A DNA stretch of 61,682 nucleotides, filler included. It is 8 parts of 8 records of this genome, joined end to end, with 100 filler letters (N's around TTAATTAATTAA, not from the genome) between each part and the next. Parts side by side here need not be neighbours in the genome. Positions count along the whole stretch, not along the records: positions 29,275 to 43,119 come from SRR31147125_16976; 7 more parts are not named here. The stretch is one strand, 5' to 3'. Both the position numbers and the translations under genes were made by a program. How positions within the stretch are numbered: position 1 is the stretch's first letter; each line of letters begins with the position of its first letter. A model generated the notes under the pieces. It saw only the letters and a list, made by a program, of their open reading frames with translations, ran no database searches and was not told the DNA's origin. This document shows, piece by piece, positions 5,616 through 56,436 of the stretch.

Positions 5616-6111
<496 letters not shown>

Positions 6112-6211
6112 NNNNNNNNNNNNNNNNNNNNNNNNNNNNNNNNNNNNNNNNNNNNTTAATTAATTAANNNNNNNNNNNNNNNNNNNNNNNNNNNNNNNNN
6201 NNNNNNNNNNN
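6112..6211. other. Artificial contig spacer
   Basis: N run, TTAATTAATTAA (6156-6167, stops in all frames), N run. Confidence 0.99.
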
Positions 6212-16168: not shown

Positions 16169-16268
16169 NNNNNNNNNNNNNNNNNNNNNNNNNNNNNNNN
16201 NNNNNNNNNNNNTTAATTAATTAANNNNNNNNNNNNNNNNNNNNNNNNNNNNNNNNNNNNNNNNNNNN
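16169..16268. other. Artificial contig spacer
   Basis: N/TTAATTAATTAA/N linker. Confidence 0.99.
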
Positions 16269-23783: not shown

Positions 23784-23883
23784 NNNNNNNNNNNNNNNNN
23801 NNNNNNNNNNNNNNNNNNNNNNNNNNNTTAATTAATTAANNNNNNNNNNNNNNNNNNNNNNNNNNNNNNNNNNNNNNNNNNNN
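23784..23883. other. Artificial contig spacer
   Basis: N/TTAATTAATTAA/N linker. Confidence 0.99.
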
Positions 23884-29174: not shown

Positions 29175-29274
29175 NNNNNNNNNNNNNNNNNNNNNNNNNN
29201 NNNNNNNNNNNNNNNNNNTTAATTAATTAANNNNNNNNNNNNNNNNNNNNNNNNNNNNNNNNNNNNNNNNNNNN
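29175..29274. other. Artificial contig spacer
   Basis: N/TTAATTAATTAA/N linker. Confidence 0.99.
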
Positions 29275-29319
29275 GGATGTTTAATGGGGGGCCTGCTTAA
29301 ATCATAAAGTGGGCAGCAA

Positions 29320-29347
29320 AAAAGCCAGCTATTTCTTGCTGGCTTTT
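29320..29347. terminator. Bidirectional terminator-like hairpin
   Basis: AAAAGCCAGC-TATTTCTT-GCTGGCTTTT. Confidence 0.7.
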
Positions 29348-29380
29348 ATTATTTTTTTTGAATTTAAACTTAGTCGAGGC

Positions 29381-29520
29381 TCAGCGTTTCATTTATTTAA
29401 GAAAATCATTGAAATCCATTTCAACACTTTCACTCCTTTCGATTCTTCTCCATGTTTCTTCAGTCCTGATTGCAAGTTCTAAGTCTTTTAAGTTCCTGAA
29501 AGCTTTAGTTCTTAATAAAA
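29381..29520 (-). pseudogene. Remnant of an AbrB/MazE-type antitoxin C-terminus
   Basis: Manual translation NLKDLELAIRTEETWRRIERSESVEMDFNDFLK*MKR*; no start codon, in-frame stops. Confidence 0.5.
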
Positions 29521-29581
29521 TTACAGGATGTTGAATATGTGCTAATCATCCATCCTGAATTAATAGAGGTAGCACCAGCAG

Positions 29582-29763
29582 GCCTCCCAGGTGGATTGAA
29601 CAGCCAAACCATCAAAGATTATCAAGGCATTAAAAAAGATTTGTTGAGAGTGTGAATGAGATCATTGCCTCGGATAGGGAACAACTTGCAGCATATAATG
29701 TTCATCAGGCCGTGGAGTTCCGTAGCGAGTTGTCGAAAACCATGGTCAACAAGATTCTATAAT
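29582..29763 (+). pseudogene. Decayed gene fragment, possibly a glycosyltransferase C-terminus
   Basis: PPRWIEQPNHQRLSRH*KRFVESVNEIIASDREQLAAYNVHQAVEFRSELSKTMVNKIL*; protein-like but broken. Confidence 0.3.
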
Positions 29764-29845
29764 GTGCTTTAGTAGAGAAAGAGACCGAGAAATAGTAGTA
29801 TATAAAAAGTCGATTTGGGTAAATATAGCGAATGGTAGTTGATTA

Positions 29846-32538
29846 CTATTTTTGCAGCCGGCCTGTAGTTTGAAAGTACTTTAAGTATTTCTCGTTTTTT
29901 ATTGCATTTGGATGGTGGAAATTCCAATCCCCTATATGTTCAATGACGCTTGCTGGAACACACCAACCGATATGCCATCCCTTTATGAAACGAGTCTGAA
30001 AATCGGTCCAACCCCATACCCCATTACCTTGTGGAATTCTATTGTCGAAAACTTGTTTACGTGCAAGGAAGCGACCACCGACAAACCTTGCAGGATAGTA
30101 ACCAATGCCCGAATCATTAATCATGATCCGATTGTTTTTACCTTGACTTGCATACTCTTGAGCACCTGCAACCCCTAGTTTCGGATGTGCCAACAACGCA
30201 GCGACCAGTTTCTGTAACCACCCAGATGTAAAAATACTATCATTATCGATTTTCCCTATAAAAGAAGATTTTGGTCGGCAGTTGGTTAAAAAATAGCTTA
30301 TTCCACCTGCAGCACCATAATTTTTGTCAGCAACAATAAAAACATCAATTATTCCTTGATGTGTTCGAATAAATCTGGCTATTTCACTTATACTATCATC
30401 TGTTGAGGCTTGGTCGATCACTGTGAATTTAACCTGTTCCCAAGGTATCCCACAATCGACTTGCCGCAATGATTCTAGGGTCATCCATGTATATTCGCTT
30501 CGATTGTATGAAAGCATTAGCAGATCTACTAAAGTATCTACCTTACCCGTTTTCTTCATAACACACCAGGTTCTTTTTTCACTATTATTCCCTTCTTTTA
30601 TCTTGTGAAATCCCATACATTGGATAGTAGATACTAGATCTTGTACCTGAGGACGATGTGTATCATCCACGAATAACAAGCCCCCAATCTTTAGGTTTGA
30701 CAGCCAGGGCATACATCCAGACCTATTATTGCCTCTAGGGCCATCAATTACTATTACATCTAACTGGCCGAAATAGAGGTATGGATAGTGTCCTTTTAGC
30801 AGCGGAGAATATAGGACTTTTATTCGATTAGACGCAATTTGACTAATGCGCTCAGCCCGGTCTTTACTTTCTTCGAGTGAAAAAACTTGTTTGCAATTCT
30901 CAGCCAATGCTTTAGCTGAAATTAAATTACCGCTACCCAGGTCCAAGGCAATGCCACCTGGGGTAGTCATTTGTCTAATCGCTTCCTCAAGCCCAGGACC
31001 AGCCGAAAAGCCATTTCTTACTTTGCTCACGTTAAGTGACCTCTTTGTGTGTTTTTCAATGATTTGATGAACCTGCTCGGGTGTTACAACTAAACGTTTA
31101 CTATCATCATAGATTGGATTACATTGATATAAATTTCTACCAAACCAAAAATGAAAAATCATATCATTGTAAGTTACACCAAAACCCCGACGTAAATTTC
31201 TATGACCGTTCCAATTAAAAGGCGCCTCAAAAGAGATCTCCACGTGGGTAGGCAGTAAAGCTTCAACATATTCTTGATTGAACATATCTTTTTCGTGTAA
31301 ATAACTGGTTATCTTTCCAGCTGGATCTAACCATGGCAAACGGTTTGTTCTTCTTCTGGAAAGACTTCCAGCATGTAGATCAAGGTGATATTTTTTCAAA
31401 AGATCTCTATGGAAAACCATGAATGATGGATGTAAATGATAATCAAGTTCACGGCGGGCTACATGATTTAGTATCCCAATAACCTTTTTTTCTCAAGCTC
31501 TCCAAGTGCCCATTGATCCCAGGACTTTATTGGAAAGGCATCCACATCAAATAAAGCAATATACTCATTGCTAGTGTTGTCAACCAAATACTGCAATGTT
31601 TCGCCATGGCATCTTGAAGGTGATCTAAGAACTGTGACGAAATCAAAATCCTGAACAATCTCTAAAAAACGATTTTTTTCCTCCATATTGCTACTATTAT
31701 CAGCGATATAATAATCAAATTCAGTTTTAGTGTGCTCCCTAATTTGAGATAGGTGGGTTGGTAAAACCTTGGATGCATGATGGGAGGCGACATATATACC
31801 AAGCCGAGATTTAAGTTCTGAACGAAATTGAGAATATAATGCACGATTTTTTCGTAATTGCTGGTAATATCCTTTAGGCATTATGTTGAGTGAATGAAAC
31901 ATGTGATAAAAGGATTTACTTGTATTTAATTCATGAAACCGTAAACTTTTAGCTAAACGATCATTTAACTCGGTATCTTCAGCACCATAACCAATAAAGT
32001 CCTCTCGAAAAGGTTGACGTAATAAATGTTGGCGCAAGACAGTGATTTGACTCTTACCAGTAAGACTTAATTTACCTCGATGCGCCATAAATTGTTGCAT
32101 GGAAATGTAGCCAGCCATAAATGAACGAGTCACGGATTCTGATTGAAGAAATACTGGTGTTACAACGACAGTTGTCGGATGCATTTGTAAAGAGATGGCT
32201 TTAAACCACCCAGGACTAATAATCATATCACAGTCTACGATAGAAATATATTCGCCAGATGCATTTTGAACTCCATGATTCAAGCAGCGGACTTTTGAGA
32301 AAAGATCGGTGGGCGTATTGTTAAGAGGGATGTATTTTGCACCGAATTTGGATAAATCGAGTCCTTCGTCGTACATATCCACAACTATTATTTCTGAGGG
32401 CACCTCATGTTCGCGAATTGATTCCAGACATTTGAGTAGTGATTGTTTGCGTCGGGAATATGCGATTATTATGCTGTTTATTGTTGAGATCATATTTATA
32501 TTCTCAATTAAGCAAAACAATTTTTTGTATCTTCTCAA
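29846..32538 (-). CDS. Multidomain glycosyltransferase (GT2-GT2-SAM methyltransferase-GT2); frameshift in A run near 31488
   Basis: 31468-32538 (IIVVD, IVDCDM, GYGAED, LFDVDAFP) continues after a one-base correction as VIGILNHVARRELDYHLHPSF into 29846-31420 (LDLGSG, IVIDGP, LFVDDT; LSYNR, VIDQASTDDS, KIDND). Confidence 0.85.
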
Positions 32539-32549
32539 AACACTTTGAA

Positions 32550-33190
32550 ATTAATCTTATCTACAAAAAATGAATAAGTATCGTTATTCGAATTTTGAAT
32601 ACACGCCAATCTTTTTCCAAATTTCTTTTTGAACGCGGTAATAACTTTTTCCTCCTTTTAAAATGTATCAATTATTTTTTTCTTGGAAAATCCAGGATAA
32701 TATTTACCATTATTGTTTTTGAATTGAAAATTATTATCTTCTTTCGATATCAATATTAGTTATGGAAAATTGGTATACAATTCTATTAACCAATTATCTC
32801 AACAATGAAATGGATCACCAAGTCCAATATAACTATGATAGTTAAGTGTTGATATCTTTTATAATTCCGATTGATCTCATCATTAAATTCAATTAGAAAT
32901 TGTTCAGATTTTTTGTCCTTTTATATTATTCCTTATTTAATTTCAACGAAAATACACTCCAGAATATAAATCAATAACAATATAGTAACTTAAATACTGT
33001 AGCATTTTGGGAATAATATTAACTTTTTAAAAGATCGAAAACCGTAGTCTTGTTATAATTTTGATGTCATGCAAAAAATTAGATGTTAATTCTTTTTTAA
33101 TTCTACAATTTACATAATTCATTCATTAGTACTGAGCTACTTGTATCTTTAATCTTACCCTGGACAATTAAATTAATTATTTTCGCATAT
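32550..33190 (-). pseudogene. Probable decayed ORF downstream of the toxin-like gene
   Basis: About 640 nt AT-rich with broken protein-like stretches (GLGDPFHC*DNWLIELYTNFP*LILISKEDNNFQFKNNNGKYYPG). Confidence 0.3.
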
Positions 33191-33191
33191 A

Positions 33192-34085
33192 CTAGTTCAG
33201 AGAGCATTTTTTACAATTTGGGGCATTATCTTTTATCTTCTCCCAATACTTTATACTTTCTGAAATCTTTGTTCTTTCTTTTTTACATCGTTTTTCCTTT
33301 AATAAATCTTTTGCCTTTTTGATACCTGCTTCATAAGCACTTTTTTCGTCAGCAACACAGTCTTTCATATAACCACCATTATGTTTTTTTTCACATTTTT
33401 TAAAATCTCTATAGGAGATTCTCGGTTCTCCGCCGAACAATGGTTTCGAACTTTTTTCATCTATACTCTTCTTGAAATCACTACATGCTTGTGAATTGTT
33501 TTTAACATGTTGTTCTTCATGAGCCATGATTGTCTCAAAAAGGCATGGATGTTTACTTTTTATCTCAGGTTTTAAAATGTTAATTTTCGGTTTTCCTGTA
33601 CCAACAACTCGAAAATCCCTTTTTAAAAGAAAATTATTAAAATCATCCTGGTGAACTTTTATATCACAATCGATTTTAGCAACATTACCAGAAAGAGGAC
33701 TGTATGATGGATATGAAATATTTTGAAAATTCAAAAATCTACTCTCACTTTTTTCACATTCTATTGTTTTATTTTGTGATCCATTAAGATCCTTTTGCTT
33801 TTGTTTACTTTGCAGATTTCCCTCTTTAACTAAATTCATTACAAATTTTGGTATAATTAGCAATCTTTGTCTGCAGTTGTTCGCAAAGTAGCGAATTCTT
33901 TTTTCACCTGTTTCAGATTTTATTAATCTCTGAACTGCCTGATTACCTATTGTTCTTTGAAGGTACAAAATATGGTCAATAGGCGAATTTGTGATTTGAC
34001 TTTTTCCAGGTTTCGATCTATGGATTACCGAACCTTTTTTATTTAATTCAGGTTTTTTTGTAGTCATTTTTAGTTTTTTGAACAT
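33192..34085 (-). CDS. eCIS-cargo-like protein with Cys-rich HExxH C-terminal domain
   Basis: N-terminal SPIDHILYLQRTIGNQAVQRLIKS; C-terminal CLFETIMAHEEQH...DEKSAYEAG with many Cys. Confidence 0.7.
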   Translation of the reverse strand: MFKKLKMTTKKPELNKKGSVIHRSKPGKSQITNSPIDHILYLQRTIGNQAVQRLIKSETGEKRIRYFANNCRQRLLIIPKFVMNLVKEGNLQSKQKQKDLNGSQNKTIECEKSESRFLNFQNISYPSYSPLSGNVAKIDCDIKVHQDDFNNFLLKRDFRVVGTGKPKINILKPEIKSKHPCLFETIMAHEEQHVKNNSQACSDFKKSIDEKSSKPLFGGEPRISYRDFKKCEKKHNGGYMKDCVADEKSAYEAGIKKAKDLLKEKRCKKERTKISESIKYWEKIKDNAPNCKKCSLN

Positions 34086-34380
34086 TTATTATATTTTTTA
34101 CCAATTGAATATAAGTTCTATGTTAAATAATGATGCATAATCATGAAGCTTGATTACGAATAATAATATTTTTTATGAAAAAAGATTTAGCCTTTCTCGT
34201 AAGTTTTTAAATCGAAATGCAAAGACCACCAAAGAACAATTTGTAATTTAATTCTCTATATGTTTCTTGTATTGCTTTATCATCAGAATAAACCATTGAG
34301 CTACTCAACAGCACACGTTTACCTTTCATATACCTCATGCGCTTAATTTTCAATGACTTAGAATAGATCTTCACAAAAAG

Positions 34381-35337
34381 TTATTCAAATAACGGAGTTA
34401 TCTGGAAATTCTTCATCCATGGCACCTTTCGAAAGTTTTCTATTGATGAATGGGTCTCAAAAGCATGCCAGGCATACTTATTGTTGAAGCTGAACCAAAC
34501 ATCTTCAATCCCGATTTTATCTGTGGAATCCTCTGCTTTGGGGAAATCGGTCAATTGCAAGTATCCATTTTCCTCAACTTTCCACCAGGGCGTCGTTGAA
34601 TTCAGATGATACCAGGTAGCCAAATCATCGGCTAAAACATAAACCGTCAAGTGTCCACCTCCGGAATAAGTTAAGCCAACGACGCAACGAACACGCCACT
34701 CCGGGATGCCTGCTGAAATCAGATATGATGCCAACTCGATGCCCCAATCATCACAATCCCCTTTTAGCAACTGTCGCAATTCATAGGGATACATAAAGAA
34801 TTCACAACCGAAACCCTTTTCGTCATATTCATAAAAATATGGGTTAATCTCTTTAACGCGTGAGTGATGGTATATTCGGTAAATATCGTCGTTACATATA
34901 TTCGGGTTTGATACTAACATGGAATGTTCAGATAAATCCTTATGAATCAGCGAATCGTTAATTGTTATCATTTGTCGTACATCCACAGCAAAATGCATTT
35001 GGTACCCAGGGAGTTTTCTGGCTTTGAAAAGAACGTTAGCTTTAGGGATACGATTGTTCCAATATTCCTCACTATACTTTTCCGGTTCTGGCGGTTTGTA
35101 ACTCCGCACAATCCTTGCACTATATATCAAATCACCTTGAGGGTATCCAGCAACCGTAACCATATACCCGATGTAGTTTTTGTAGGCACTCACCGCAGCC
35201 GCTTTCATCGCATCCAGGGATATCGCCGTTTGAATAGGATACGGAATTGGATAGAACTTATCACTATCCGTCTCTAAAATCACGCTCTCCGCATCCTTAA
35301 CTAATTTGCCTTCAAGTTTTTCGACTTTAGATTGCAT
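34381..35337 (-). CDS. Transglutaminase-like cysteine protease-fold protein
   Basis: GDCDDWGIELASYL...GGGHLTV...WYHLNST; AGGAGG RBS. Confidence 0.8.
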   Translation of the reverse strand: MQSKVEKLEGKLVKDAESVILETDSDKFYPIPYPIQTAISLDAMKAAAVSAYKNYIGYMVTVAGYPQGDLIYSARIVRSYKPPEPEKYSEEYWNNRIPKANVLFKARKLPGYQMHFAVDVRQMITINDSLIHKDLSEHSMLVSNPNICNDDIYRIYHHSRVKEINPYFYEYDEKGFGCEFFMYPYELRQLLKGDCDDWGIELASYLISAGIPEWRVRCVVGLTYSGGGHLTVYVLADDLATWYHLNSTTPWWKVEENGYLQLTDFPKAEDSTDKIGIEDVWFSFNNKYAWHAFETHSSIENFRKVPWMKNFQITPLFE

Positions 35338-35451
35338 GATTGTTCCTCCTATCTTGATAAATTTTTATAAAAATAAAAAAATAATCTATTTTGATGATGA
35401 GCATCTTTACCAAATAATTCTTCAAAGATTTAGACATCTAGATTACATTTT

Positions 35452-35628
35452 TCATTTCTCAATCCGCCTTAGTACCAATAGTTCAATATGTTTCTTCTAT
35501 GGTTCGGTTTGAATAAGCTCTTAATTCTTCTTCTCTAATTGACGTTGCACCTATGGTTCTTACATTTACATGACTTTTCTTGCCACTTGCTCAACGTTTT
35601 ATTCAAATTTATCTCTGGACTTACCCAA
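35452..35628 (-). pseudogene. Decayed eCIS/DUF4157-type leader segment
   Basis: One frame reads LGKSRDKFE*NVEQVARKVM*M*EP*VQRQLEKKN*ELIQTEP*KKHIELLVLRRIEK*. Confidence 0.6.
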
Positions 35629-36246
35629 TCCATGGAAAATTCTTTTGGCCTTAATTCGCGTGTACCCCGCCATCGATGTTCGACAGAGTCTCTTACAGGG
35701 AAATCTTTGAGCAAGCCCCCTGATAAACCTTTTTTGTGTATATCAATCATCGTTAAGATACACGGGGCTCCGTGATGGGCATAAGGAATGAAATTTTTGT
35801 AAACATGTATATTTATCAGTTGAAAATAAGGATGTGAATAGGATATTGCATCTGTGTTGTGAGGGGAAACATTTATACCGTCTTTATTCACAAATTGGAT
35901 TTCACCAACACCAAAAGTCTTGTCTTCAAATAATGCCATCATCTCTTCAATTGGCGGCTTTTGCATAATAATATCTGAATCGAATAATAATGCATAGTCA
36001 GTCTTGGCCATTTCTAATCCTTTATGCATCCCTTTTCCATGACCAATATTATAATCCAAGGAAACCGATCTGACAAATGGATCTCGAATGCTTTTAACAT
36101 ACTGCTTGCAAGAATTATTTGGCAATGAACCATTGATAATTACAATTTGCAACGTTGGATAAAACGTGCGTATGGATTGTAAACTTGCTTCAATTAGGAC
36201 TCTGCCTATTATACGAGACAACAATACCAGTTATATTATTTATCAC
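35535..36246 (-). CDS. GT2 glycosyltransferase (frameshift near 36205)
   Basis: GTG start at 36246 gives INNITGIVVSYNRQS, joining LIEASLQSIRTFYP...NIGHGKG...LLFDSDI. Confidence 0.82.
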
Positions 36247-36269
36247 GATAGTACTGCTAAAAAGCAGTC

Positions 36270-36952
36270 TCAATTGTCATCTAATGGTAAATTAAAAATA
36301 CCCAACATACCCATTTGAACATCAACCTGGTGATCAATTTCAGCTTGGCTCATATAGCTTTGAGTTGTATTCCCAAATGTAAATCCACTGGAAAAATATT
36401 TTGATAGACTTGATTGAACATCTGGTTCATCATATTGTTACTTATCGTAATACTAACTCTTTGTTCAAGTGTATTAGCAATCGTTTTATCGAGAAGGCTT
36501 CAAATCAGGTCATTGGCGTTTTTTAAATCGATTTTGAGCAATTTGCGACCATACATAGTCTGACAGTAACCGGACAATGACTGAAACAAAAACATTGAGG
36601 CATACGCATCATCAGTAATACCTATCAGTCCCAGGTCATCCGGTATTAAATCTTCTTCAAGCTTCCAGTACTGTTCTAATTCATCCATCATGTGGTTCAT
36701 TTCATTCCGAATGCCAAATTTTGCAGCATTGTTCAAACCTTCTTCGATATAAATTGGCACTTCATTTACATAAGTGATTACAAATTGACTTGCAGCCTTG
36801 GCTTGTGTCATATCCATTTTATTTCCATTATTTCGAGCCATTTCTATAGCAAGGCACGCAATGGTATTTGTTTGACGTTCATTCTTAATTGCTTTGTAAA
36901 TGACTTTTTTATTGCTTGTAGATTCATGATTTTTCTCAAGGTTAATTATCAT
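36270..36952 (-). CDS. YkvA/DUF1232-like protein, interrupted by an in-frame TGA (36500) and a T-run frameshift (~36392)
   Basis: DLIPDDLGLIGITDDAY motif; frame stays open past the TGA (SLLDKTIANTLEQRV...) and, with one T restored, ends IDHQVDVQMGMLGIFNLPLDDN*. Confidence 0.65.
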
Positions 36953-37457
36953 TTTTATGAAAAATACTTTTAATTGATTCAGGCAATTTAGTAATTACAG
37001 CCTTTACCATCTCAACAGCGTTATCACTGATATTACCACTATCATAGTTAACAGATAACTCTCCATCTTTGTATTCTACTTTCAAGGAGCTAGATACAAT
37101 TGACATAACTAAAACCGATCCAATTGCCAGAACAATGCCAGCCCCTAGGGTATGTATTTGGTGTGTTTCCATATACCGTTCCAACAGAAGTGATTTGTCT
37201 GGATCTTGAGTCCACTGTTCCATGATTGTTCTAACTGTGGGAACAACTTCCTCTGGCTTAACCAATGATTCCATTTTTTCTGTTTCCGCCTGTTGTATCA
37301 ATCGTAATGTCTCATCAGTACTAAAATCGTCAGGTAAATTTTTGATAACATCGACTGAATCAAATTGAATTTCATTAGCAAGGTATCCGGAAAAACCTTG
37401 ATACAAACTTAATATTTCATTATCACTCATTTGGTTTAATTTTGCCGATAATTCCAT
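36942..37457 (-). CDS. Small protein with internal hydrophobic helix and beta-hairpin (EACC1-like layout)
   Basis: 171 aa; AAGGAG RBS; HTLGAGIVLAIGSVLVMSIVSSSLKVEYKDGELSVNYD. Confidence 0.8.
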   Translation of the reverse strand: MELSAKLNQMSDNEILSLYQGFSGYLANEIQFDSVDVIKNLPDDFSTDETLRLIQQAETEKMESLVKPEEVVPTVRTIMEQWTQDPDKSLLLERYMETHQIHTLGAGIVLAIGSVLVMSIVSSSLKVEYKDGELSVNYDSGNISDNAVEMVKAVITKLPESIKSIFHKNDN

Positions 37458-37469
37458 AGCGAATCTCCT

Positions 37470-39890
37470 TTATCTCCAGTCACCTATTAAACCATATCCT
37501 GCCCAAAAATATTCATTGGGTAAATGCGACTCATGACTGGTTTGTTTAAGTTTTAACACTGCCTTTTGATGGGCGACTGCTTTACTCTTGTTTTTATTTA
37601 ACCTTTCATCATAAAAATATGAATAAAATTCATTCGCATTATTAATATCCACATTCCAAAATGTTGATATCAGGGAACAGGCTCCTTTTTGAAGAAATGC
37701 CCATTCAATTCCCAATGCATCGCCACCAATACCCTCACGTGCATATCCGGCAACGCAGGCTTGCAATGAAATGTGAGAATGCGTCAAATCACATTCCCTG
37801 GCTAATAATCTTACCGGGCTTAACAGGTGTAATCCATCATCTTTATAATTATAGTTGGGATCCTTTTTATAAAGTGTCGGGAGTTTATCATTATCAGACA
37901 ACAGTAATCCGGAATTATCAAACGGGTTGTCTTCAAAAGGGAAGAATCCATGCGTTGAAAAATGTATAAGCTGGTTGTTTTTAAATGCAGGAATCACATT
38001 GTTAAGTGATGCATTTGTTAGACTAACACTTGTACAATTATCCGAAAAGTTTTTTGCTAGAAGTGATGGACAGTAATTAAATGCTTTTTTCAAATCCGGA
38101 TTTTTAATATCATCAGTTGATGGCACATAAACAGTTAAGCAACTCTCAGTTCTACTGGCTGGTTTTGACAGTAAATAAATCAGATGACCGGCATTGTGTA
38201 TCCTGGATACTGTGAAAAGCTCAATCATTGGTTTATCTTTAATTTTGAGATAATGCAGCGGAAAAAGATAAAGCAAATGATCAGCCGAATAACAGATATG
38301 ATCGCCTTCCTCAATTTCACCCTGGTCAACCAGTTTTTCAAACATTGATAAAAAAGGACTTAACTCCACTATAACATTTATTTTTTTAAATTGCAGATTC
38401 CAGGTTTCCGGATTGTGCAGATTTTTATGATAATATTTATCCAACCAACTTTTACCAATAGGTATTTGCGCGGCATAAATCTTACCTGTTTTTACAATGA
38501 TCGACAAATAGCTGCAATCGTCATCGACATGGAAAGTCAGGTAATGGGCATTTTCTTTAGCTAATATTGGTTGTAATCTCTCACGGATACGATACAGATT
38601 AAATTCGTCAACATCCTGCAACGACTCGGTTTCCAGGGTATCTGTGATGGCTCTGCCTTTTGAACCTTCAATTGCATCGAGCATATCATCAAATCGTTGC
38701 GATTTAAACATATGTTCAACTGACGAATAAAACAGATAAGGATACTGTTGAAATACGCCGCCACGCTCAAATGGATCTTTTATCCCATTGCGGATAGATT
38801 CAAGATTCTTCCTTAAGTTTATCAGCTGGTCCGCAGCGTTAGATGATTCATTCAACCTGCTGTAACAAAGATATAAACCATAATAGGCATCATTTACCAA
38901 CGTTGCATTGTTTAATTTGAGTGCAGATTGGAGTGATTTTTTTAAGATATTAATTGAATTGATAATTTCATCTCTGGATGGTTGGTTACCGACAAATATG
39001 CCGGAAGCTCTTCTGATTTCCTGCCTGACTGTTATTTCATTCATTTCAGTGCTATCTCTTTGCAGAAAGGACTCTCCCTTTGAAAGGATATCTTCGAGTT
39101 GAGTAAATCCAGTGCGTGTATACGGATCCAGGTTTTCAGACTGTTTCATTTGGTCAATCAAGCCCGGATCCATGCCAGATTGCTCCACCATTTTTTTTAG
39201 AGAATCCAGGATGGTGCTTGTACTTGCCTGCTGATCCTGATACGATTTCTGTTGGCGCTGTTCCGCATTTTTATCCAATTCTCCAACATCAGCTTTTAAA
39301 TCCCGTAATTTTGTTCTTAATCGTTGCAATTCAATGTCTGCCGCGGGATTGCCTTCAATCCCCGGTCGGTTAAAAGCAATTTCCCAGGCATCATCAATTC
39401 TGTTTAGGTGCATCAATATATCAATCCTGGAGATTAAAATTGCTTTAAAATTATCCAAAAATGACGGTCGGTCTTTGGCATGTAGTTTTTCCGGATCATT
39501 CTCATATTCCTGCCAAAACGACAATTCATTCAATATAAATTTCTCTGCCGTATCATATTTACCCAGGTTAATTAATGCGTTTATATAATTATGTGCATAA
39601 CCAATGACCGTCATTAAAAACAAATCAGGATATTTACCGGATAAAAATAATTCTTTGCCATAACGGTAGAGCGCACTTCCCAGCATTTCTCCAAAGGTGC
39701 AATTACTTCCATGACAATACGCTGGTAACAAACTGCCGAATCCGAGAAGCGTTGACAGCGGATTGTCCGTTGTTATCAGGCCCTTCATGACATCTTTCAT
39801 ATTATTCTCAGGAAGCTGCCGCCATAGTTCCAAGTTTAAATTCGAATCTTTTGTACTCAGGTACTCAAATATTTTATTGGTATCTAACAT
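37470..39890 (-). CDS. Helical/TPR-like + CHAT (caspase/HetF-like) protease
   Basis: C-terminal LYLFPLHYL, LIHFSTHG (His), SLQACVAG (Cys), LISTFWNV, YFWAGYGLIGDWR; helical N-terminal half. Confidence 0.92.
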   Translation of the reverse strand: MLDTNKIFEYLSTKDSNLNLELWRQLPENNMKDVMKGLITTDNPLSTLLGFGSLLPAYCHGSNCTFGEMLGSALYRYGKELFLSGKYPDLFLMTVIGYAHNYINALINLGKYDTAEKFILNELSFWQEYENDPEKLHAKDRPSFLDNFKAILISRIDILMHLNRIDDAWEIAFNRPGIEGNPAADIELQRLRTKLRDLKADVGELDKNAEQRQQKSYQDQQASTSTILDSLKKMVEQSGMDPGLIDQMKQSENLDPYTRTGFTQLEDILSKGESFLQRDSTEMNEITVRQEIRRASGIFVGNQPSRDEIINSINILKKSLQSALKLNNATLVNDAYYGLYLCYSRLNESSNAADQLINLRKNLESIRNGIKDPFERGGVFQQYPYLFYSSVEHMFKSQRFDDMLDAIEGSKGRAITDTLETESLQDVDEFNLYRIRERLQPILAKENAHYLTFHVDDDCSYLSIIVKTGKIYAAQIPIGKSWLDKYYHKNLHNPETWNLQFKKINVIVELSPFLSMFEKLVDQGEIEEGDHICYSADHLLYLFPLHYLKIKDKPMIELFTVSRIHNAGHLIYLLSKPASRTESCLTVYVPSTDDIKNPDLKKAFNYCPSLLAKNFSDNCTSVSLTNASLNNVIPAFKNNQLIHFSTHGFFPFEDNPFDNSGLLLSDNDKLPTLYKKDPNYNYKDDGLHLLSPVRLLARECDLTHSHISLQACVAGYAREGIGGDALGIEWAFLQKGACSLISTFWNVDINNANEFYSYFYDERLNKNKSKAVAHQKAVLKLKQTSHESHLPNEYFWAGYGLIGDWR

Positions 39891-39899
39891 AGGTACCTC

Positions 39900-40361
39900 T
39901 TAACGGATTTGTTTTATAATTTCGCTTAGAATTCGAGCTGAATCAGTTTTATTTGGTGATAATCTCATTGAAGCATTTGCGTTCGTTAATATTTGTATTA
40001 CTGATTGTAGCCGTTCTACTTGCTGTAAATTAACTAAGTCATGCTTTTTCATAAGTGATCTCTTGATTTGTTTAACAATTAAATCGATCATGAGTATTTC
40101 TAGCTGATCGTCTGTTTTTTCTTTCTCATGATAGACATTATCATTATTCACTATTAATTTACTGTCTTGAGTTTCTATTTTGAAAATGATGATTAAAAAT
40201 AACGCCATTAAGCCAACGGAACAAAAACCAGCAATAATTTTTTCAAATGAGGAAGTAGATTCGATCATCCATAGAACTAGCATAGATTCACATACAACTA
40301 AGAATGTAGCCATTAACGCGTAGAAGTTTCTTATTTTTTGAGGCTTTATATCAACACTCAT
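39900..40361 (-). CDS. Two-TM membrane protein
   Basis: FYALMATFLVVCESMLVLWMI and IIAGFCSVGLMALFLIIIF, then a soluble helical tail; ends 9 nt before the CHAT start. Confidence 0.75.
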   Translation of the reverse strand: MSVDIKPQKIRNFYALMATFLVVCESMLVLWMIESTSSFEKIIAGFCSVGLMALFLIIIFKIETQDSKLIVNNDNVYHEKEKTDDQLEILMIDLIVKQIKRSLMKKHDLVNLQQVERLQSVIQILTNANASMRLSPNKTDSARILSEIIKQIR

Positions 40362-40472
40362 CTATGCACCGAGTAATGTTTTATCATCATTAAGTAATAA
40401 ATTTTATTATATTTGAGAATTAATAAAATAAAGCATTTTATCTATTTTTTGTCCGCCAATACAATTATTATT

Positions 40473-40994
40473 TTAATTCCTTTTAAGGTTCAGTTTAATA
40501 ATCCATATATTCAATTGAATCATCCAATTTTTACTATCCTCTTTAATAGTCCTAAAGTTATTTTTCTCCACAAAAAAGTGATAAGATATACTATTTGATT
40601 TTTGAATATATGCTAAAAGTAAGGTATCGCATAATGATCGTGCGTGATTTATCACTTCTTCAAGCACTAATGATCCAAAGCCTTGTTGTTGGAAACGTTG
40701 ATCGATAATTACAGAATTTAGAAATATTGCATCCATAATTTTAAATTTATCTTCAGTCCACTGCTTAGAGAGCAACCAATAATACCCTATGAATTCATAT
40801 TGATTTGTCTTTAGAATTCTTATGATTGAATTTTCGTCGTGTATTAAAGGCACGAATTCATTTTTTAAAAAATCATCCCAATTCCTTCCTATATATTTAA
40901 TATGCTGTTCCATATTTTCTTTTGAAACACGCTCAATTATTGTTTGGTAGGAATAATCATAATTTCGCCAAATTAAATCTTTTCGATTTGCCAT
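40473..40994 (-). CDS. GNAT N-acetyltransferase
   Basis: VIIDQRFQQQGFGS acetyl-CoA motif, N..SYHFF...NNF. Confidence 0.85.
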   Translation of the reverse strand: MANRKDLIWRNYDYSYQTIIERVSKENMEQHIKYIGRNWDDFLKNEFVPLIHDENSIIRILKTNQYEFIGYYWLLSKQWTEDKFKIMDAIFLNSVIIDQRFQQQGFGSLVLEEVINHARSLCDTLLLAYIQKSNSISYHFFVEKNNFRTIKEDSKNWMIQLNIWIIKLNLKRN

Positions 40995-41034
40995 TATTTT
41001 TCTTTCATTGTGAACGCTAAAGTTTTGCCTGTAA

Positions 41035-41190
41035 TTATAGGTTTATTCTATTTACATCCTTAATGTTGCCACCATCAATTAAATCCTTCACCTTTTCCAA
41101 AATTACAGAAAAGAGCAAATATTCTTCTGATTCAAAATCAGGAACCTTCTCTAAGGTTTGACGCACAGCTAAGGATTCATAGGGCTCCAT
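41035..41190 (-). CDS. Short ORF or gene remnant (51 aa)
   Basis: MEPYESLAVRQTLEKVPDFESEEYLLFSVILEKVKDLIDGGNIKDVNRINL*; frame is open upstream as well. Confidence 0.25.
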   Translation of the reverse strand: MEPYESLAVRQTLEKVPDFESEEYLLFSVILEKVKDLIDGGNIKDVNRINL

Positions 41191-41267
41191 AAATGAATTT
41201 ATTATTTGTTTAATACAAACTTCAATTTTTAGGTTAGTAAATATGAAGAAAATGCTTAATTTGCCGA

Positions 41268-42709
41268 TTAATTTTTTACAAATTCTATCTTGAAGACATA
41301 GAAATTATCTGGGCCCAGTACAGGTAAATATCTGTTACCTTTTCCGTCAATTCCCCAACTGTTTGCCCCTTGTACTCTAAATTCTTTTTGATATAATTGA
41401 CTTGGTTCAGAGTTAATATTTATAACCTTATTACCTTCGGAATCATAGGTTAAAAGTATTTTTTGATATATATGCTTGTCTCTTTGACGGTGGAAGTACG
41501 CAGGATTAAATCCTAAAACATATAATTTATGTTCTTCATCGACATAGATTAACTTCCAATTTTTAATACCATATTTTTGTGAGAGAGTATCAGGAATATT
41601 CAGATTTACTTTTTTATCGAAGGTGCCATCATTTTTCAATATATCAATGACAATAGTCGCAGAGTTATCATCATAATTTAGATTACTGATAAAAATATAT
41701 TGATTTGATGGGGCAATCACTATATTCTCAAGTTTTTCTCGCCAGATAGTTGTATTGTTTTTACCTATACATCCCATTTCCAGTCCAAAAACACCATAAC
41801 CGCAACCATAGTCATCTGTTCCAACAGGAATTCCTAATAATTCATACATTTCTTCATTTCCTGAATAAAATATTTCCTTATTTGTTTTAGGATCATATTG
41901 TACCCAATATCTTTTTCTGATGTCATTTTCTATCTCCTTTACATAATAAAAATATCCTATACTATCCATAAACACTCTCTCATAAGATCCTTTGAATGTA
42001 TGAAAGGGCTTTAATTTTCCGGTTTCTTTATCAATTTCGAATATAGAAAAAGCATCATCATCGCTAGCACAAAGGTATAAATGATTATTATTGATTATAA
42101 AATCCTGATAATTAGTGTTAATACTTTGATAATTATATTTCTTCCTATCTACCTTTTCTTTTTTTGCCAGCTTACTGTACCATCAGTTTTGATTTTTCTA
42201 AGTAAGTTATAAGTTATATTTTTATCGTATTTATCTATCAATTCTAATAAATAAATATTTTCGTCCTCGTCTATTACAAAATCAATAATGTACCATTCGT
42301 CATAAGATATGGAAGGTTTTATAATTTTCAACTTATTAATTAATTTTCCTTGAGTAGTTAGAATTAACAAAGTCTTATCCTGAGTTAAAAGAATGATTTT
42401 ATCGAAACGCATAATCCTTATTTCAACAGTACCTCTTACTTTCTCAGGCACTTTTTCAACCATTATATTGGTAAGAGGTGCTCCTGTAAATATTTCAGGA
42501 ATACCATCTTCTTTACCCCAAGAAAGCTTTATGATAGGACTAATAGTAGCTTTGTTCTTAAATAGGATATTTTTATTCCTATTTCTTTGTTTTTTTTGCT
42601 CCATAATTGTATCCATTTTTTCTTGATTTGATATTTTGTCATTAGATAATAAATATATTATAATTAAAAGAAAAATAATAAATGGAATTAAAATTAAATT
42701 TGATTTCAC
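41268..42709 (-). CDS. Membrane-anchored beta-propeller-like protein, probable immunity protein (frameshift in A run near 42160)
   Basis: N-terminal TM anchor; DFVIDEDENIYLL, YVDEEHKLYVLG, GIDGKGNRYL blade-like repeats; frames join via EKVDRKKYNYQSINTNYQDF...GSYERVFMD. Confidence 0.72.
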
Positions 42710-42726
42710 AATAACTCCTCATCTTA

Positions 42727-43119
42727 TTACCATGCCGGAGTGCCAAATGTTACTGTCGGTGCTCCCCAAATTGGTGTCATATAATCGCTTAGTTTTTTGA
42801 TTGTGCTAATCTTCACTTCATCAATAGTACCGCTGACAGATGGTTTATCAGGAGGCGGCCAAAAGGTATATACTTCATCTTTTTTCCCTGTTGCTAAAGC
42901 TACATGATCTAAAGTTGATGGATTCCAGAATACTAAATCACCTCTTGACAGTGTCGAGGTACCTGAGATGTAAGGACTTGTAGAGGAAGCCATCTTGGAA
43001 ACCCAATCAGCTATAAGGACAGCAGTATATAGGTTATGAATCCAATTCCAATCAATTACACCGCATCTATAAGCGGCTAATAAAATCATTTCCCAGCAAT
43101 TAATTGTTGTAGTTTTTTT
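42727..43119 (-). CDS. C-terminal papain-like/NlpC-P60-like domain (5' truncated), probable toxin
   Basis: TTINCWEMILLAAY...RGDLVFW...HVALATG. Confidence 0.68.
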   Translation of the reverse strand, partial: KKTTTINCWEMILLAAYRCGVIDWNWIHNLYTAVLIADWVSKMASSTSPYISGTSTLSRGDLVFWNPSTLDHVALATGKKDEVYTFWPPPDKPSVSGTIDEVKISTIKKLSDYMTPIWGAPTVTFGTPAW

Positions 43120-43219
43120 NNNNNNNNNNNNNNNNNNNNNNNNNNNNNNNNNNNNNNNNNNNNTTAATTAATTAANNNNNNNNNNNNNNNNNNNNNNNNN
43201 NNNNNNNNNNNNNNNNNNN
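43120..43219. other. Artificial contig spacer
   Basis: N/TTAATTAATTAA/N linker. Confidence 0.99.
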
Positions 43220-45569
43220 TTACCAGCTTTATATTCAGCATTTTCCTTTAAGTCACCCAAGAGACGCGCAGAACCAATCTCCTGTGAATTTTTAGGAATT
43301 TCTACATCCAGAATATTCTGCAGCTGGTTCTGTTTCCCTTCATATGCTTTTCGAGTAACCAGGAGTCCGCCACTTACTGTTGTTACTGAAGCAGATTCTT
43401 CTCCGAAAAAGGTGAATTTCGGGAATCGTTCAATAATAATATGTTTCAGTTCTATAAGTACGGCCGGATCCAAATCATCAACATCTTTCACAAGACTATA
43501 GACTCTCTGAATAGAATCTTTAGGACTTTCCTTCAAAAATTTATGAAGATTCTTCTCAGAAAAGAGAATAGTATTTATTGTTTTAGCTATTTTTCTATTT
43601 GGAGCTACATCTCTTTTACTGTTAACAGCACGGTTGGAAATATCGAGCATATGCAGCAGGGCTAATAGAATTTTCTCAAAACTGAGTTTAATCGTTCCTT
43701 CCCAGAAAGTTCGTTCATAATTCTTTACAAGCCACAAAAACACTTCCGGCATCTCTTTATATCGATCATACGCTTCCCGAAAAATTTGAAGAACAACATC
43801 GTTCTGTCCTGATCTTCAAGTTCATCAACAATGAAAGTTGAAAGATAGTAGGGGTACAGCTGTTTAAACAGCTGTGGCCAATCTTCTCTTGCATTCATCA
43901 ATTCCTCGAGGAATGATCTTTTCAGCTCAGCATCAGGCAGATTGCTGAAAATCTGGTCCATATTATTAATAGAATCGAGAAGCTGTCCAAATTTCACTTC
44001 AATGTTATGATTGAGAAATGAGTAGGATTTAACCAGTTTTTTTACTATGAGATAACTGGTAATTACTGAATCATTCACTATTGCGAAGTTATTAATGATA
44101 TTTGTAAAATAACCGAAAATTTCTGAGAAATAGTCAGATTCAGGATCACTGTTATCCAGAAATTCTCGAAGAATCTTCACTTTAAGAAGAAAATCTTTTT
44201 CAGCTTTGAACATATTAAGTGTTTTTTCTTCATAAGAAACCGGTGTTTCTCTTACTGAATACTGATCAGTAGCTTCAGGATTAACTCCAAAATAGGGATC
44301 TGTTTTTAACAGTTTCTTGGCCGTGCTGTTCCAGGTAAGCCATTCATTGGCTGATAAAATGGATGGAACCAGCTCAGCTTTAATCTGCTTCAGGCTGGCT
44401 GAGTTATCAAAACTCTGAATTATAGTTCGCAAAGTCCAAAGTACATCCTGTTTTACTTTCGCTTTCAGTCTTTCTTTCGGGAAAACACTCTTAATAACCC
44501 AAATATGATTCTTTAATAGCACATTTAAAGCGTTAACAGCCATCTTCAGAGCCATTTCATGATCTCTTTTTTTAATGAAATCGATAACAAGAGAGTCTTC
44601 TTTTATTTTCTGGATTCTACCGATACCCCATGTTTTATGGTGTACAAATGTGCCCTGATCAAATGAAATATGCTTCTCAAAATCAGCAATAGCGGCATTA
44701 ATATCTCTATATGACTGAGTTAGATTTGTTTTTTCAATATAGTCTTCTATCTTACTGTGGTCAGCAAATTTCTTCCGATAGATATTTATTAATCTGTCTC
44801 TTGATTCACTATTTGTCGGCTGAAAAAACAAAATATCTTTCAGAATCAACAGGCATTTATCCCAGTTCTCTTTTGAGTAATAGATATCATACATACCTTC
44901 AAGCATTTGCGCGGCACGATCTTTATTCAGCGTTTTTGCAACACGCAAAACCACATTCTGCTGATTGTCATAGTCTTCAGGTGAAAATAAAAGAAGTTTT
45001 TGCCAAATTTCTTTTATTTGAGAAAAATTCTTGATAATGATGAAACGATGCAGTGATTTTTTGCAATAAAAAACCGCTTTCTCAATATCACTCAGTTCTT
45101 CATAACGTTCAGCGATCAGGCGAATCAATTCAATTTCATCATAATCAACTTTTATGAGCCTTTCCCAAATATCGAATTTCTCATCTTCTTTCCCGGTATT
45201 CTCATAGCATTCAGCTAAAATACGCAAGGCTATGGCGTTTTCTCCATATTTCAGCAAGCGTAAACAGAGGAATTCTACTATTAGCCACTTACGATTGTCA
45301 TAAAACAGGTTAATCAACTGAATAATATTTGAATCGTCAATCAGGTGTTTTTCCAGAGAAATAATTCCGGAAATATAGAGTGATATAATACTGTTTTTTG
45401 TGTGCAGCAAATGTTCATCACAAAGTTCTTTAACTTTAATCCAATCATTTTTATTAATTTCTTCATAGAGAAGGCTGTCAAGATCTTCAAAGTTATTTAC
45501 CGTGTAACTATTAATTGTTGCCCGAGTCCATTTTTCCTCATTCAGCATTTCATTGATTTTATCAATCAT
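43220..45569 (-). CDS. greA: Spirochaete-type long transcription elongation factor GreA (frameshift near 43760; 3' truncated)
   Basis: LNEEKWTRAT start, FVHHKTWGIGRI, C-terminal NSQEIGSARLLGDLKENAEYKA. Confidence 0.92.
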
Positions 45570-48865: not shown

Positions 48866-48965
48866 NNNNNNNNNNNNNNNNNNNNNNNNNNNNNNNNNNN
48901 NNNNNNNNNTTAATTAATTAANNNNNNNNNNNNNNNNNNNNNNNNNNNNNNNNNNNNNNNNNNNN
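48866..48965. other. Artificial contig spacer
   Basis: N/TTAATTAATTAA/N linker. Confidence 0.99.
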
Positions 48966-55580: not shown

Positions 55581-56336
55581 ATGAAAGTTTGTATTGCAGA
55601 AAAACCCAGCGTTGCCAAAGAAATTGCTCAAATTGTTGGAGCAAAAAGCAGGCGAGACGGATATTTTGAGGGGAACGGTTACCAGGTGAGCTGGACTTTC
55701 GGACATCTTTGCACCTTGAAAGAACCACACGATTACACGGAGCGGTGGAAATACTGGAATGCCAACGAACTCCCTATGATTCCGCAACGTTTCGGAATTA
55801 AAGTAATTGACGACAGCGGCGTAAAAAAACAATTTGAAACACTTGAAGGATTAATTGCAAAAGCAGAAGAAATTATAAACTGTGGTGATGCCGGCCAGGA
55901 AGGAGAACTCATCCAGCGCTGGGTGCTTAACAAGGCACAAAACAAAGCGCCGGTAAAACGCTTGTGGATTTCTTCGCTTACCGAGGAAGCCATAAAAGAA
56001 GGTTTTGCCAAACTAATGGATGGCAACGATTTTAATCACCTCTACGAAGCCGGTAGTGCGCGGGCAATTGGCGATTGGCTTTTGGGACTAAACGCCACCC
56101 GAATGTACACCCTAAAATACGGGCAAAACAAACAGGTACTTTCCATCGGACGGGTACAAACACCAACGCTGGCATTGATTGTAAACCGCCAAAAAGAAAT
56201 CGATAATTTTAAGCCCGAACCGTATTACGAGATAAAAACCATTTACCGCGAAACCACATTTTCAGCAAAAAGCGGGCGCTATAAAAACCCGGAAGAAGCA
56301 CAAACTGTTTTAGATGAAATTTCGGGTATCGACCTG
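55581..56336 (+). CDS. topB: DNA topoisomerase III (3' truncated)
   Basis: IAEKPSVA, DAGQEGELI, RLWISS, SIGRVQTPTL. Confidence 0.95.
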
Positions 56337-56436
56337 NNNNNNNNNNNNNNNNNNNNNNNNNNNNNNNNNNNNNNNNNNNNTTAATTAATTAANNNNNNNN
56401 NNNNNNNNNNNNNNNNNNNNNNNNNNNNNNNNNNNN
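56337..56436. other. Artificial contig spacer
   Basis: N/TTAATTAATTAA/N linker. Confidence 0.99.

Follow-up and report, generated by a model that had tools for sequence, protein, structure and literature searches.

In gasdermin-protease pairs, a protease gene lies beside a gene for a membrane-active protein that is inactive until cleaved, and CHAT or caspase-like protease partners are known. In the type III-E Craspase, the TPR-CHAT protease Csx29 cleaves a dedicated neighbouring substrate, Csx30. Another such arrangement is the EACC1 system ("System 4"). As described by Kaur et al. (2020), its 5' gene encodes a small protein with a conserved transmembrane (TM) helix that carries a small-residue patch and is sometimes fused to EAD1 or EAD2, its 3' gene encodes an N-terminal caspase domain followed by variable C-terminal domains, and a sensor role is proposed for the TM helix (PMC7159879). 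According to the preprint by Evans et al., the neighbouring caspase-like protease cleaves EACC1 to give a C-terminal fragment that has toxic activity and makes liposomes permeable; the preprint also describes DnaK-like EACC1-protease fusions, for which a stress-response role is raised, one caspase-like protease that defends without a dedicated effector, and effector classes among which are metallo-beta-lactamase (MBL)-fold, alpha/beta-hydrolase and metallophosphoesterase proteins (bioRxiv 10.1101/2025.11.14.688446). Here we analysed a window of 61,682 nucleotides (the whole stretch of DNA, filler included), in which four open reading frames (ORFs) encode a protein with two TM segments (TM2), a TPR-CHAT protease, a small protein that we call p171, and a broken DUF1232-like reading (p150) (Table 1). 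The evidence supports a standalone CHAT protease of helical-repeat type at this locus, accompanied by a small membrane protein of its own; conservation of the neighbourhood indicates that the protease and p171 are a rare two-gene cassette, of which the other two genes are not conserved parts.

The protease and p171 recur as a pair across phyla

We scanned one genome per species across 185,579 species and found relatives of the protease at 42 loci (L001 to L042) in at least ten phyla, among them Bacteroidota, Cyanobacteria, Pseudomonadota, Acidobacteriota, Gemmatimonadota, Nitrospirota, Actinomycetota, Planctomycetota and candidate phyla. Neighbour families were sought by iterated hidden Markov model (HMM) searches over all ORFs of these loci. 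In 35 of the 42 loci the CHAT gene had an ORF of the p171 family directly 3' of it on its own strand; these are 35 of the 40 testable loci, a testable locus being one with at least 300 nt downstream (L002 and L008 end too early). The start of p171 fell between -106 and +111 nt relative to the CHAT stop codon in the 35 loci, of which L010 (two ORFs), L025 (cut at the contig end) and L042 (a weak fragment) are imperfect. All-against-all clustering of the locus ORFs returned no other family that is common beyond close relatives. Since the remaining flanking genes vary between lineages, the pair appears to move as a cassette.

The two proteins also share their history. The CHAT and p171 distance matrices were correlated with a Mantel r of 0.84 over 27 pairs (0 of 2000 permutations as high), which is joint inheritance as expected of linked genes and no proof of interaction, and the same nearest neighbour was found for CHAT and p171 in 22 of the 27 pairs. 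The comparison joined CHAT ORFs of 700-1000 residues to p171 ORFs of 150-260 residues, and nine of the 35 loci were left out.

The first-pass annotation had described four co-oriented genes, and ORF calling reproduced both the orientation and the spacing (9 nt between TM2 and CHAT, 12 nt between CHAT and p171, and an 11-nt overlap of p171 with p150). Its proposal of a four-gene unit did not survive the comparison, as TM2 occurred in 0 of the 42 loci and the p150 family in 11 of the 42, with the copy in the window broken. Conserved co-occurrence was thus seen for the protease and p171 and not for TM2 or the YkvA-like gene.

The protease combines a helical arm with an intact CHAT domain

The 806-residue protein matched Pfam CHAT (PF12770) over residues 523-804 with a score of 87.2 bits (cut-off 24; E 1.8e-24), and CHAT was the sole domain that Pfam and NCBIfam returned for the protease locus in the window. 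The His/Cys dyad that had been noted at first pass (STHG, QAC) is intact: H647 and C712, the catalytic pair of the caspase fold, were invariant across 17 and 18 aligned sequences. The helical region of about 450 residues noted before the CHAT domain was likewise recovered in the AlphaFold2 (AF2) model (predicted local distance difference test score, pLDDT, 84.2; predicted TM-score, pTM, 0.80), in which DSSP assigned helices alone over residues 4-446 and an alpha/beta fold from residue 448; the loop 717-725 after Cys712 was of low confidence. No Pfam family matched the N-terminal helical region, and a scan of the 806 residues returned no hydrophobic segment.

Among 5.8 billion proteins there were 24 matches to the protease, 23 of them full-length or near full-length at 32-82% identity, with the N-terminal region conserved too. 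In 11 of the 42 loci the alignment starts only at about residues 284-337, and the N-terminal third is therefore the variable part of the protease. The gene is intact in the window; in L024, L032 and L042 it is broken up into two or three ORFs, which suggests frequent decay of the cassette.

A Foldseek search of the Protein Data Bank (PDB) with the full-length model gave 41 matches at E <= 0.001. The top 15 were all Csx29/TPR-CHAT chains (E 1.4e-13 to 5.4e-11; TM-scores 0.32-0.51). Next came separase (1.8e-10), then DdvA, an anti-sigma factor with a CHAT domain (1.3e-9), a SAVED-CHAT protein (7e-4) and gingipain. The predicted structure shows a TPR-CHAT fold, and Csx29 is its best whole-length structural match, with the same TPR-like arm, CHAT domain and His/Cys dyad; the action of Csx29 on a dedicated neighbouring substrate also resembles the pairing that we propose for the protease and p171. 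On the model, however, the protease has a TPR-CHAT architecture yet is not Csx29: it scored 13.9 bits against the Csx29 family model NF041237 (cut-off 300) and is 11-13% identical to Csx29. Csx29 is accompanied by Cas7-11, a CRISPR array and Csx30, none of which occurs at 29275-43119, the piece of the window that bears the locus, or among 118 neighbours of the related loci. Because no Cas7-11 or CRISPR is present, the activator must differ from an RNA-guided complex.

p171 is a modular protein with a small-residue TM helix

The p171 protein consists of a helical N-domain, a linker, a small-residue TM helix, a beta-hairpin and two short helices. In its AF2 model (pLDDT 83, pTM 0.79) the N-domain spans residues 1-98, followed by a low-confidence linker (99-111), a helix (112-123) that falls within the region of the single hydrophobic segment (103-121), and the hairpin (125-138). 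The best-kept positions in 149 aligned sequences were D12, R76, L79, A83, L110 and G113 (140/149), and the TM region also keeps a small residue at 111, Ser or Asn at 117, and Ala, Ser or Thr at 123-125. By this conserved small-residue pattern, the TM helix of p171 is predicted to be unlike a plain anchor. The earlier description of small flanking proteins with membrane segments applies to TM2, which has two, and to p171, which has one; no strong hydrophobic segment was found in p150.

Searched against 1.84 billion sequences, a p171 profile retrieved 323 representatives (50% identity), 219 of them at E <= 1e-10, and most members are 155-180 residues long. A search of 126 members (26 + 100, E <= 0.01) against Pfam returned neither EACC1 nor CATASP (0/126), nor any other small-protein family, and the ESM Atlas returned solely unnamed hypothetical-protein clusters. 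Foldseek found nothing in the PDB at E <= 0.001. An hhalign comparison of p171 with the protease gave no shared domain (probability 0.4%), and a predicted CHAT-p171 complex, for which alignments were not used, scored 0.17 against a mark of 0.34, which is evidence neither way.

Fusions reveal the modularity of the family. An EAD11 is appended to the C-terminus of complete p171 proteins in L009, L018, P0061, P0097 and P0104, and the protein of P0140 has EAD1 there. Elsewhere only the N-domain (HMM positions 5-133) is present, joined to a second CHAT protease; this is so in L016, L028, P0102 and P0167, and the fusions of L016 and L028 (N-domain-CHAT2) are 758 and 741 residues long. This arrangement fits a constant handle joined to an exchangeable output, as judged from the domain order. 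In the stretches L016:9114-12946 and L028:6621-10201, the gene directly 3' of the fusion encodes a DUF7379 protein and a metallophosphoesterase, respectively; here two proteases might form a cascade that ends in an enzymatic effector. Just after p171 itself, an MBL-fold gene lies at L041:820-1908 and a DUF7379 alpha/beta-hydrolase-like gene at L022:4212-4943.

A wide VIA-align search with p171 reached a best Z of 4.3, far under the noise level that the tool states, and 16 of the 50 rows listed were CARD/PYD domains placed on residues 1 to about 103 with Z of 2.7-4.0, below noise and a lead only; no Pfam death-like family matched in the 126 members. From this lead a bolder proposal can be built, which we think quite unlikely to hold: that p171 proteins are undescribed protease-gated membrane effectors whose N-domain of about 100 residues is a CARD/PYD-like death-fold handle, that the CHAT2 fusions are "CARD-caspase"-like, and that a CRISPR-independent TPR-CHAT sensor sets off a two-step cascade. 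In the simple cassette the handle would gate a pore-forming TM-hairpin, and the fusions would be followed by hydrolase or phosphoesterase effectors. If true, such a cascade would parallel the logic of the apoptosome or inflammasome.

Table 1. Positions of the features in the window
Feature	Coordinates	Strand	Basis
TPR-CHAT protease gene, 806 aa, intact	37470-39890	minus	ORF call, Pfam CHAT, homologues, AF2, Foldseek
All-helical TPR-like arm at the N-terminus (residues 1-446), presumably sensory or regulatory	38553-39890	minus	DSSP on AF2 model
CHAT catalytic domain, residues 523-804	37479-38324	minus	Pfam match
His647 codon	37950-37952	minus	invariant in alignments A1, A3
Cys712 codon	37755-37757	minus	invariant in alignments A1, A3
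p171, 171 aa, conserved partner	36942-37457	minus	ORF call, adjacency, family, AF2
p171 TM helix, residues 103-123 (A111, G113, S/N117, A123)	37089-37151	minus	hydrophobicity, alignment
TM2, two-TM ORF, 153 aa	39900-40361	minus	ORF call
p150, open reading, 150 aa	36500-36952	minus	ORF call
DUF1232-like accessory pseudogene, restored reading	36270-36952	minus	tblastn of intact L001, L012, L028 homologues
Contig joints	6112-6211, 16169-16268, 23784-23883, 29175-29274, 43120-43219, 48866-48965, 56337-56436		linker sequence

The cassette resembles EACC1 systems by analogy and matches no named system

The small protein had been called EACC1-like at first pass, and this holds as an analogy and not as a family assignment. 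Both p171 and EACC1 are small and non-enzymatic, have one TM helix with a small or Gly patch next to a caspase-superfamily protease, occur alone or fused to EADs, are patchily distributed and have alpha and beta extensions, which in p171 include a beta-hairpin after the helix. The two differ in several respects. None of the 126 p171 members matched PF19953, and p171 is about 165 residues long against the 107 positions of that model. Its helical N-domain of about 100 residues is long, unlike the short extensions of EACC1; it is encoded 3' of its protease, whereas EACC1 is encoded 5'; and its EADs are a C-terminal EAD11 or EAD1, against EAD1 or EAD2. The proteases differ as well, as the protease domain here is C-terminal behind a constant TPR-like arm, whereas that of the EACC1 system is N-terminal before variable domains. 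Searches for EACC1 gave no sequence above cut-off in 201 cyanobacterial genomes (at E 1e-5, which is too strict), in 301 actinobacterial genomes or, in six frames, in 8 cassette-bearing genomes, and the Kaur 2020 supplements that were examined contained neither EAD11 nor EACC1.

The CATRA system, which brief mentions describe as a conflict system of caspase, TPR and small proteins with proteolytic activation, is alike in outline. CATRA-C (PF20270) and CATASP (PF20271) had no match in the four locus proteins (E <= 0.1) or in the 126 p171 members (E <= 0.01), and it is by these Pfam models that the cassette is set apart from CATRA. Gasdermin systems have a gasdermin domain, which Pfam found neither in the locus-bearing piece nor among the neighbours of related loci; p171 is far smaller than a gasdermin and has a pre-formed hydrophobic helix. 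PADLOC-DB v2 returned 0 families for 11 window proteins (E <= 0.1) and 0 for 8 CHAT or fusion proteins of related loci. The gene combination had not been recognised at first pass, and PADLOC, Pfam and NCBIfam likewise yielded no named system. We found no literature on DUF1232 with CHAT or on a pair of the TPR-CHAT/p171 type, and earlier surveys could already list the family.

TM2 and the DUF1232-like gene are not conserved parts of the cassette

The fourth gene had been read as an intact YkvA-like component, and this was not the case. The first 150 codons of p150 are open and end at an in-frame TGA (36500-36502) that stands opposite Gly or Arg in homologues. Homology passes the TGA in frame, shifts frame at a T5 run (36392-36396, one base missing) and ends at 36270, the coordinate from which the first-pass annotation had drawn the locus; intact relatives are 208-247 residues long. 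Re-assembly of the probable source run gave one contig of 14.3 kb at depth 31 that reproduced both lesions; because this run may be the window's own source, an assembly error is excluded, a sample-specific variant not. Recoding of TGA was rejected as an explanation for the stop, as all other window ORFs are long under table 11. The sole difference between window and re-assembly lies at the run 36294-36298, with 5 bases in the window and 6 in the re-assembly. The run of 6 gives p150 the ending ...GIF that the Aquimarina homologue of L001 also has, so an indel or polymorphism must affect at least one homopolymer of the window.

The window copy of p150 scored 18.5 bits against DUF1232/YkvA (PF06803), below the cut-off of 23. 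Of six homologues scanned, those of L008 (31.5 bits), L014 (24.4) and L017 (34.2) were above it, two were below and that of L001 had no match; in one ESM Atlas neighbour cluster, DUF1232 was found on 24% of members. To our knowledge DUF1232 has no known function. Most members of the p150 family, and the copy in the window, have no strong TM segment. The position of the gene varies among the 11 loci: it lies upstream on the same strand in eight, upstream on the opposite strand in L034, after p171 in L001 and directly after the protease in L017. By this distribution p150 appears to be an optional accessory that has decayed in this genome.

TM2, with its two strong hydrophobic segments, had no match in Pfam, PADLOC or NCBIfam, and HMM searches found it in none of the 42 loci, where the closest CHAT protein is 56% identical (L001) and the relatives of 70-82% identity are not represented. 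Scans of metagenome contigs gave 4 distant CHAT loci at 31-38% identity, and the contigs of the close relatives were not among them. A single TM2 homologue, 68% identical, was found among 5.8 billion proteins. It and a p171 homologue of 78% identity have an equal longest contig of 4233 bp and the same sources, and the two probably lie on one contig in a close relative. TM2 is probably co-transcribed with CHAT here, as a lineage-specific local addition rather than a conserved component. Eight loci have a DUF1232-like gene in the slot upstream of CHAT that TM2 occupies in the window, and L032:2786-3139 and L034:6510-6929 encode homologous single-TM proteins of 117 and 139 residues about 70 nt upstream of CHAT; the slot may thus hold variable small membrane proteins.

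It follows that a system of four functional components, made up of the two-TM protein, the protease, p171 and the YkvA-like protein, is very unlikely. The shared strand and the tight spacing of the ORFs would suit it, as would the probable linkage of the lone TM2 homologue to p171 and the recurrence of the order CHAT-p171-DUF1232-like in L001. TM2, however, is absent from 42 of 42 loci, L001 included, and has its one homologue in 5.8 billion proteins. As for the YkvA-like gene, no more than 11 of the 42 loci have it, its place in them varies, and its copy in the window is interrupted by a stop and a frameshift, both seen again on re-assembly.

Genomic context of the locus

The window consists of eight contigs joined end to end, with seven N44-TTAATTAATTAA-N44 linkers as joints. 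The linkers are artificial, and ORFs or neighbours that span a joint are therefore not real; such artefacts are the ORF at 43168-43752, a truncated rpoB at 5616-6077 and a topoisomerase fragment at 55581-56384. For the same reason, the context of the locus is limited to its own 13.8-kb piece (29275-43119, SRR31147125_16976). The other genes of this piece encode family-2 glycosyltransferases, a GNAT acetyltransferase and unknowns, with weak matches to transglutaminase-like and NlpC/P60-like proteins. On one flank of the cassette (29846-32538 and 34381-36224), a gene with a weak match to transglutaminase-like cysteine proteases accompanies three genes for family-2 glycosyltransferases, and this flank looks like a surface-polysaccharide region and not like a defence island. 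The first-pass statement that CRISPR, gasdermin and NTPase genes are absent nearby held for the whole piece, in which a repeat scan found no tandem, CRISPR-like or short-spaced direct repeats and Pfam calls on the ORFs found no gasdermin or NTPase gene and no Cas7-11, Csx30, Csx31 or RpoE. Promoter-like sites at 36000-41100 were fewer than in shuffled sequence in a promoter/terminator scan, a result that carries no information on transcription.

As for the host, a 614-residue protein at 43725-45569, whose ORF is cut by a joint, matched the long GreA-fusion model NF011309 with E 2.6e-190 and 634.7 bits, below its cut-off of 714. This is presumably a spirochaete type of GreA and a hint at the host lineage. 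The RecA encoded elsewhere in the window, on a different piece, shares 59-63% identity with the RecA proteins of five cassette-bearing genomes from three phyla, and the nearest genomic relative of the protease is that of Aquimarina (Bacteroidota; L001, 56% identity). Taking the RecA identities, the GreA type and the Aquimarina protease together, we infer that the cassette was probably acquired horizontally.

Two cyanobacterial loci, L013:2661-9541 and L020:2565-9202, share a same-strand row that consists of a 257- or 229-residue protein, an Hsp70 of 508-510 residues, an unknown protein of 253 or 299 residues and then CHAT-p171, with the Hsp70 gene two genes upstream of the cassette and in the same orientation. 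This Hsp70 is shorter than a typical DnaK. The row echoes the DnaK link of EACC1 described by Evans et al. (10.1101/2025.11.14.688446). In the gammaproteobacterial loci L007:8185-10251 and L024:9361-11370, which lack p171, the CHAT gene is followed by a convergent gene for a Peptidase_C1 (papain-like) protein of 669-688 residues, the two being homologous to each other.

The Hsp70 genes of L013 and L020 and a universal-stress-protein gene upstream in L001 bear on whether the cassette serves immunity at all. A non-immune protease for regulation or quality control with a membrane adaptor, acting in stress signalling or development after the manner of the CHAT protein HetF or of DdvA-type signalling proteases, would accord with them, with the housekeeping flanks and missing defence-island signal among the neighbours of the 42 loci, and with the stress-response role raised for DnaK-linked EACC1 modules (10.1101/2025.11.14.688446). 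We consider this improbable, as a patchy spread (42 loci in 185,579 species), decay, EAD fusions and protease-activated effector classes typify conflict systems and not core physiology.

Discussion

We propose that two genes work as one mobile unit, a protease-effector cassette that consists of a cytoplasmic, latent TPR-CHAT protease and p171. The protease would receive a trigger through its helical N-terminal arm, upon which the activated His647/Cys712 site would cut p171 in the linker between its helical N-domain and TM helix. The freed TM-plus-hairpin fragment would then oligomerise in the inner membrane and dissipate it, possibly as a pore, arresting or killing the cell, which could serve phage defence. 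We give even chances to the core of this model, that a latent sensor-protease cuts p171 and thereby frees a membrane-active fragment. The same logic has been demonstrated experimentally for EACC1-caspase and gasdermin-protease pairs. The low-confidence linker at residues 99-111 counts for cleavage of p171 as far as the predicted structure goes, and the resemblance of the modelled protease to Csx29, separase and DdvA, all of them switchable, substrate-specific proteases, counts for a latent switch. The protease-activated effector classes encoded beside the pair in L041, L016, L022 and L028, by analogy with those listed by Evans et al., may be counted on the same side. The sparse spread over many phyla, the frequent decay and the addition of EADs speak, only indirectly, for a conflict system.

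Several observations weigh against this model. The testable loci L004, L007, L017, L024 and L029 have no p171, which means that the protease is able to exist without it. An Asp at 101-102, present in about half of 149 family sequences, is missing from the window's p171, and with this acidic pair before the TM helix absent no conserved cleavage motif can be named. The p171 family has no match to EACC1 or CATASP and no structural match in the PDB, and its correlated distances to CHAT are what linkage would give. A defence role is unproven: PADLOC matched none of the 11 window proteins, there is no defence-island context, Pfam calls on the 118 flanking ORFs were mostly housekeeping and lineage-dependent, and PADLOC gave generic cross-hits alone for these ORFs (a sigma-54 activator, HflX-type GTPases and RsmF-type methyltransferases).

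The loci that retain the protease without p171 also bear on a second explanation, in which p171 is a membrane-anchored regulator, either a sensor of membrane state or a securin-like pseudo-substrate inhibitor, and the real substrates are other proteins of the cell or of an invader. The likeness of the protease fold to separase, which is held by securin, and to DdvA, a CHAT-bearing transmembrane anti-sigma factor, agrees with this, as do the sensor proposal of Kaur et al. for a small-residue TM helix (PMC7159879) and the caspase-like protease that defends without a dedicated effector (10.1101/2025.11.14.688446). The sensor idea for EACC1 has, however, been superseded by cleavage-activated pore formation (10.1101/2025.11.14.688446), the fusions of the N-domain to a protease and of p171 to EADs suit a handle plus payload better than an inhibitor, and Pfam calls found no sigma factor or other obvious target encoded nearby. 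On balance we regard a regulatory p171 as possible, though somewhat unlikely, and the protease-effector cassette as more likely.

In this genome, two of the four genes first proposed fall outside the system, and one of them is a pseudogene. By sequence comparison, the novelty would lie in the TPR-CHAT/p171 cassette and in the unnamed p171 family, which forms 323 clusters at 50% identity and is covered by neither a Pfam model nor a PADLOC entry. The compact pair (806 and 171 residues) suits the question of how a TPR-CHAT protease is activated without Cas7-11, and the p171 N-domain on a second protease makes a cascade directly testable. A general logic is emerging in bacterial immunity, that of protease-licensed death effectors such as gasdermins, EACC1, Pepco, Csx30 and PCaspase, and it has parallels in animals. 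By analogy we rate the cassette as belonging to the protease-licensed membrane-effector kind and, if this is true, it would add to that logic a CRISPR-free TPR-CHAT sensor-protease with its own small membrane partner.

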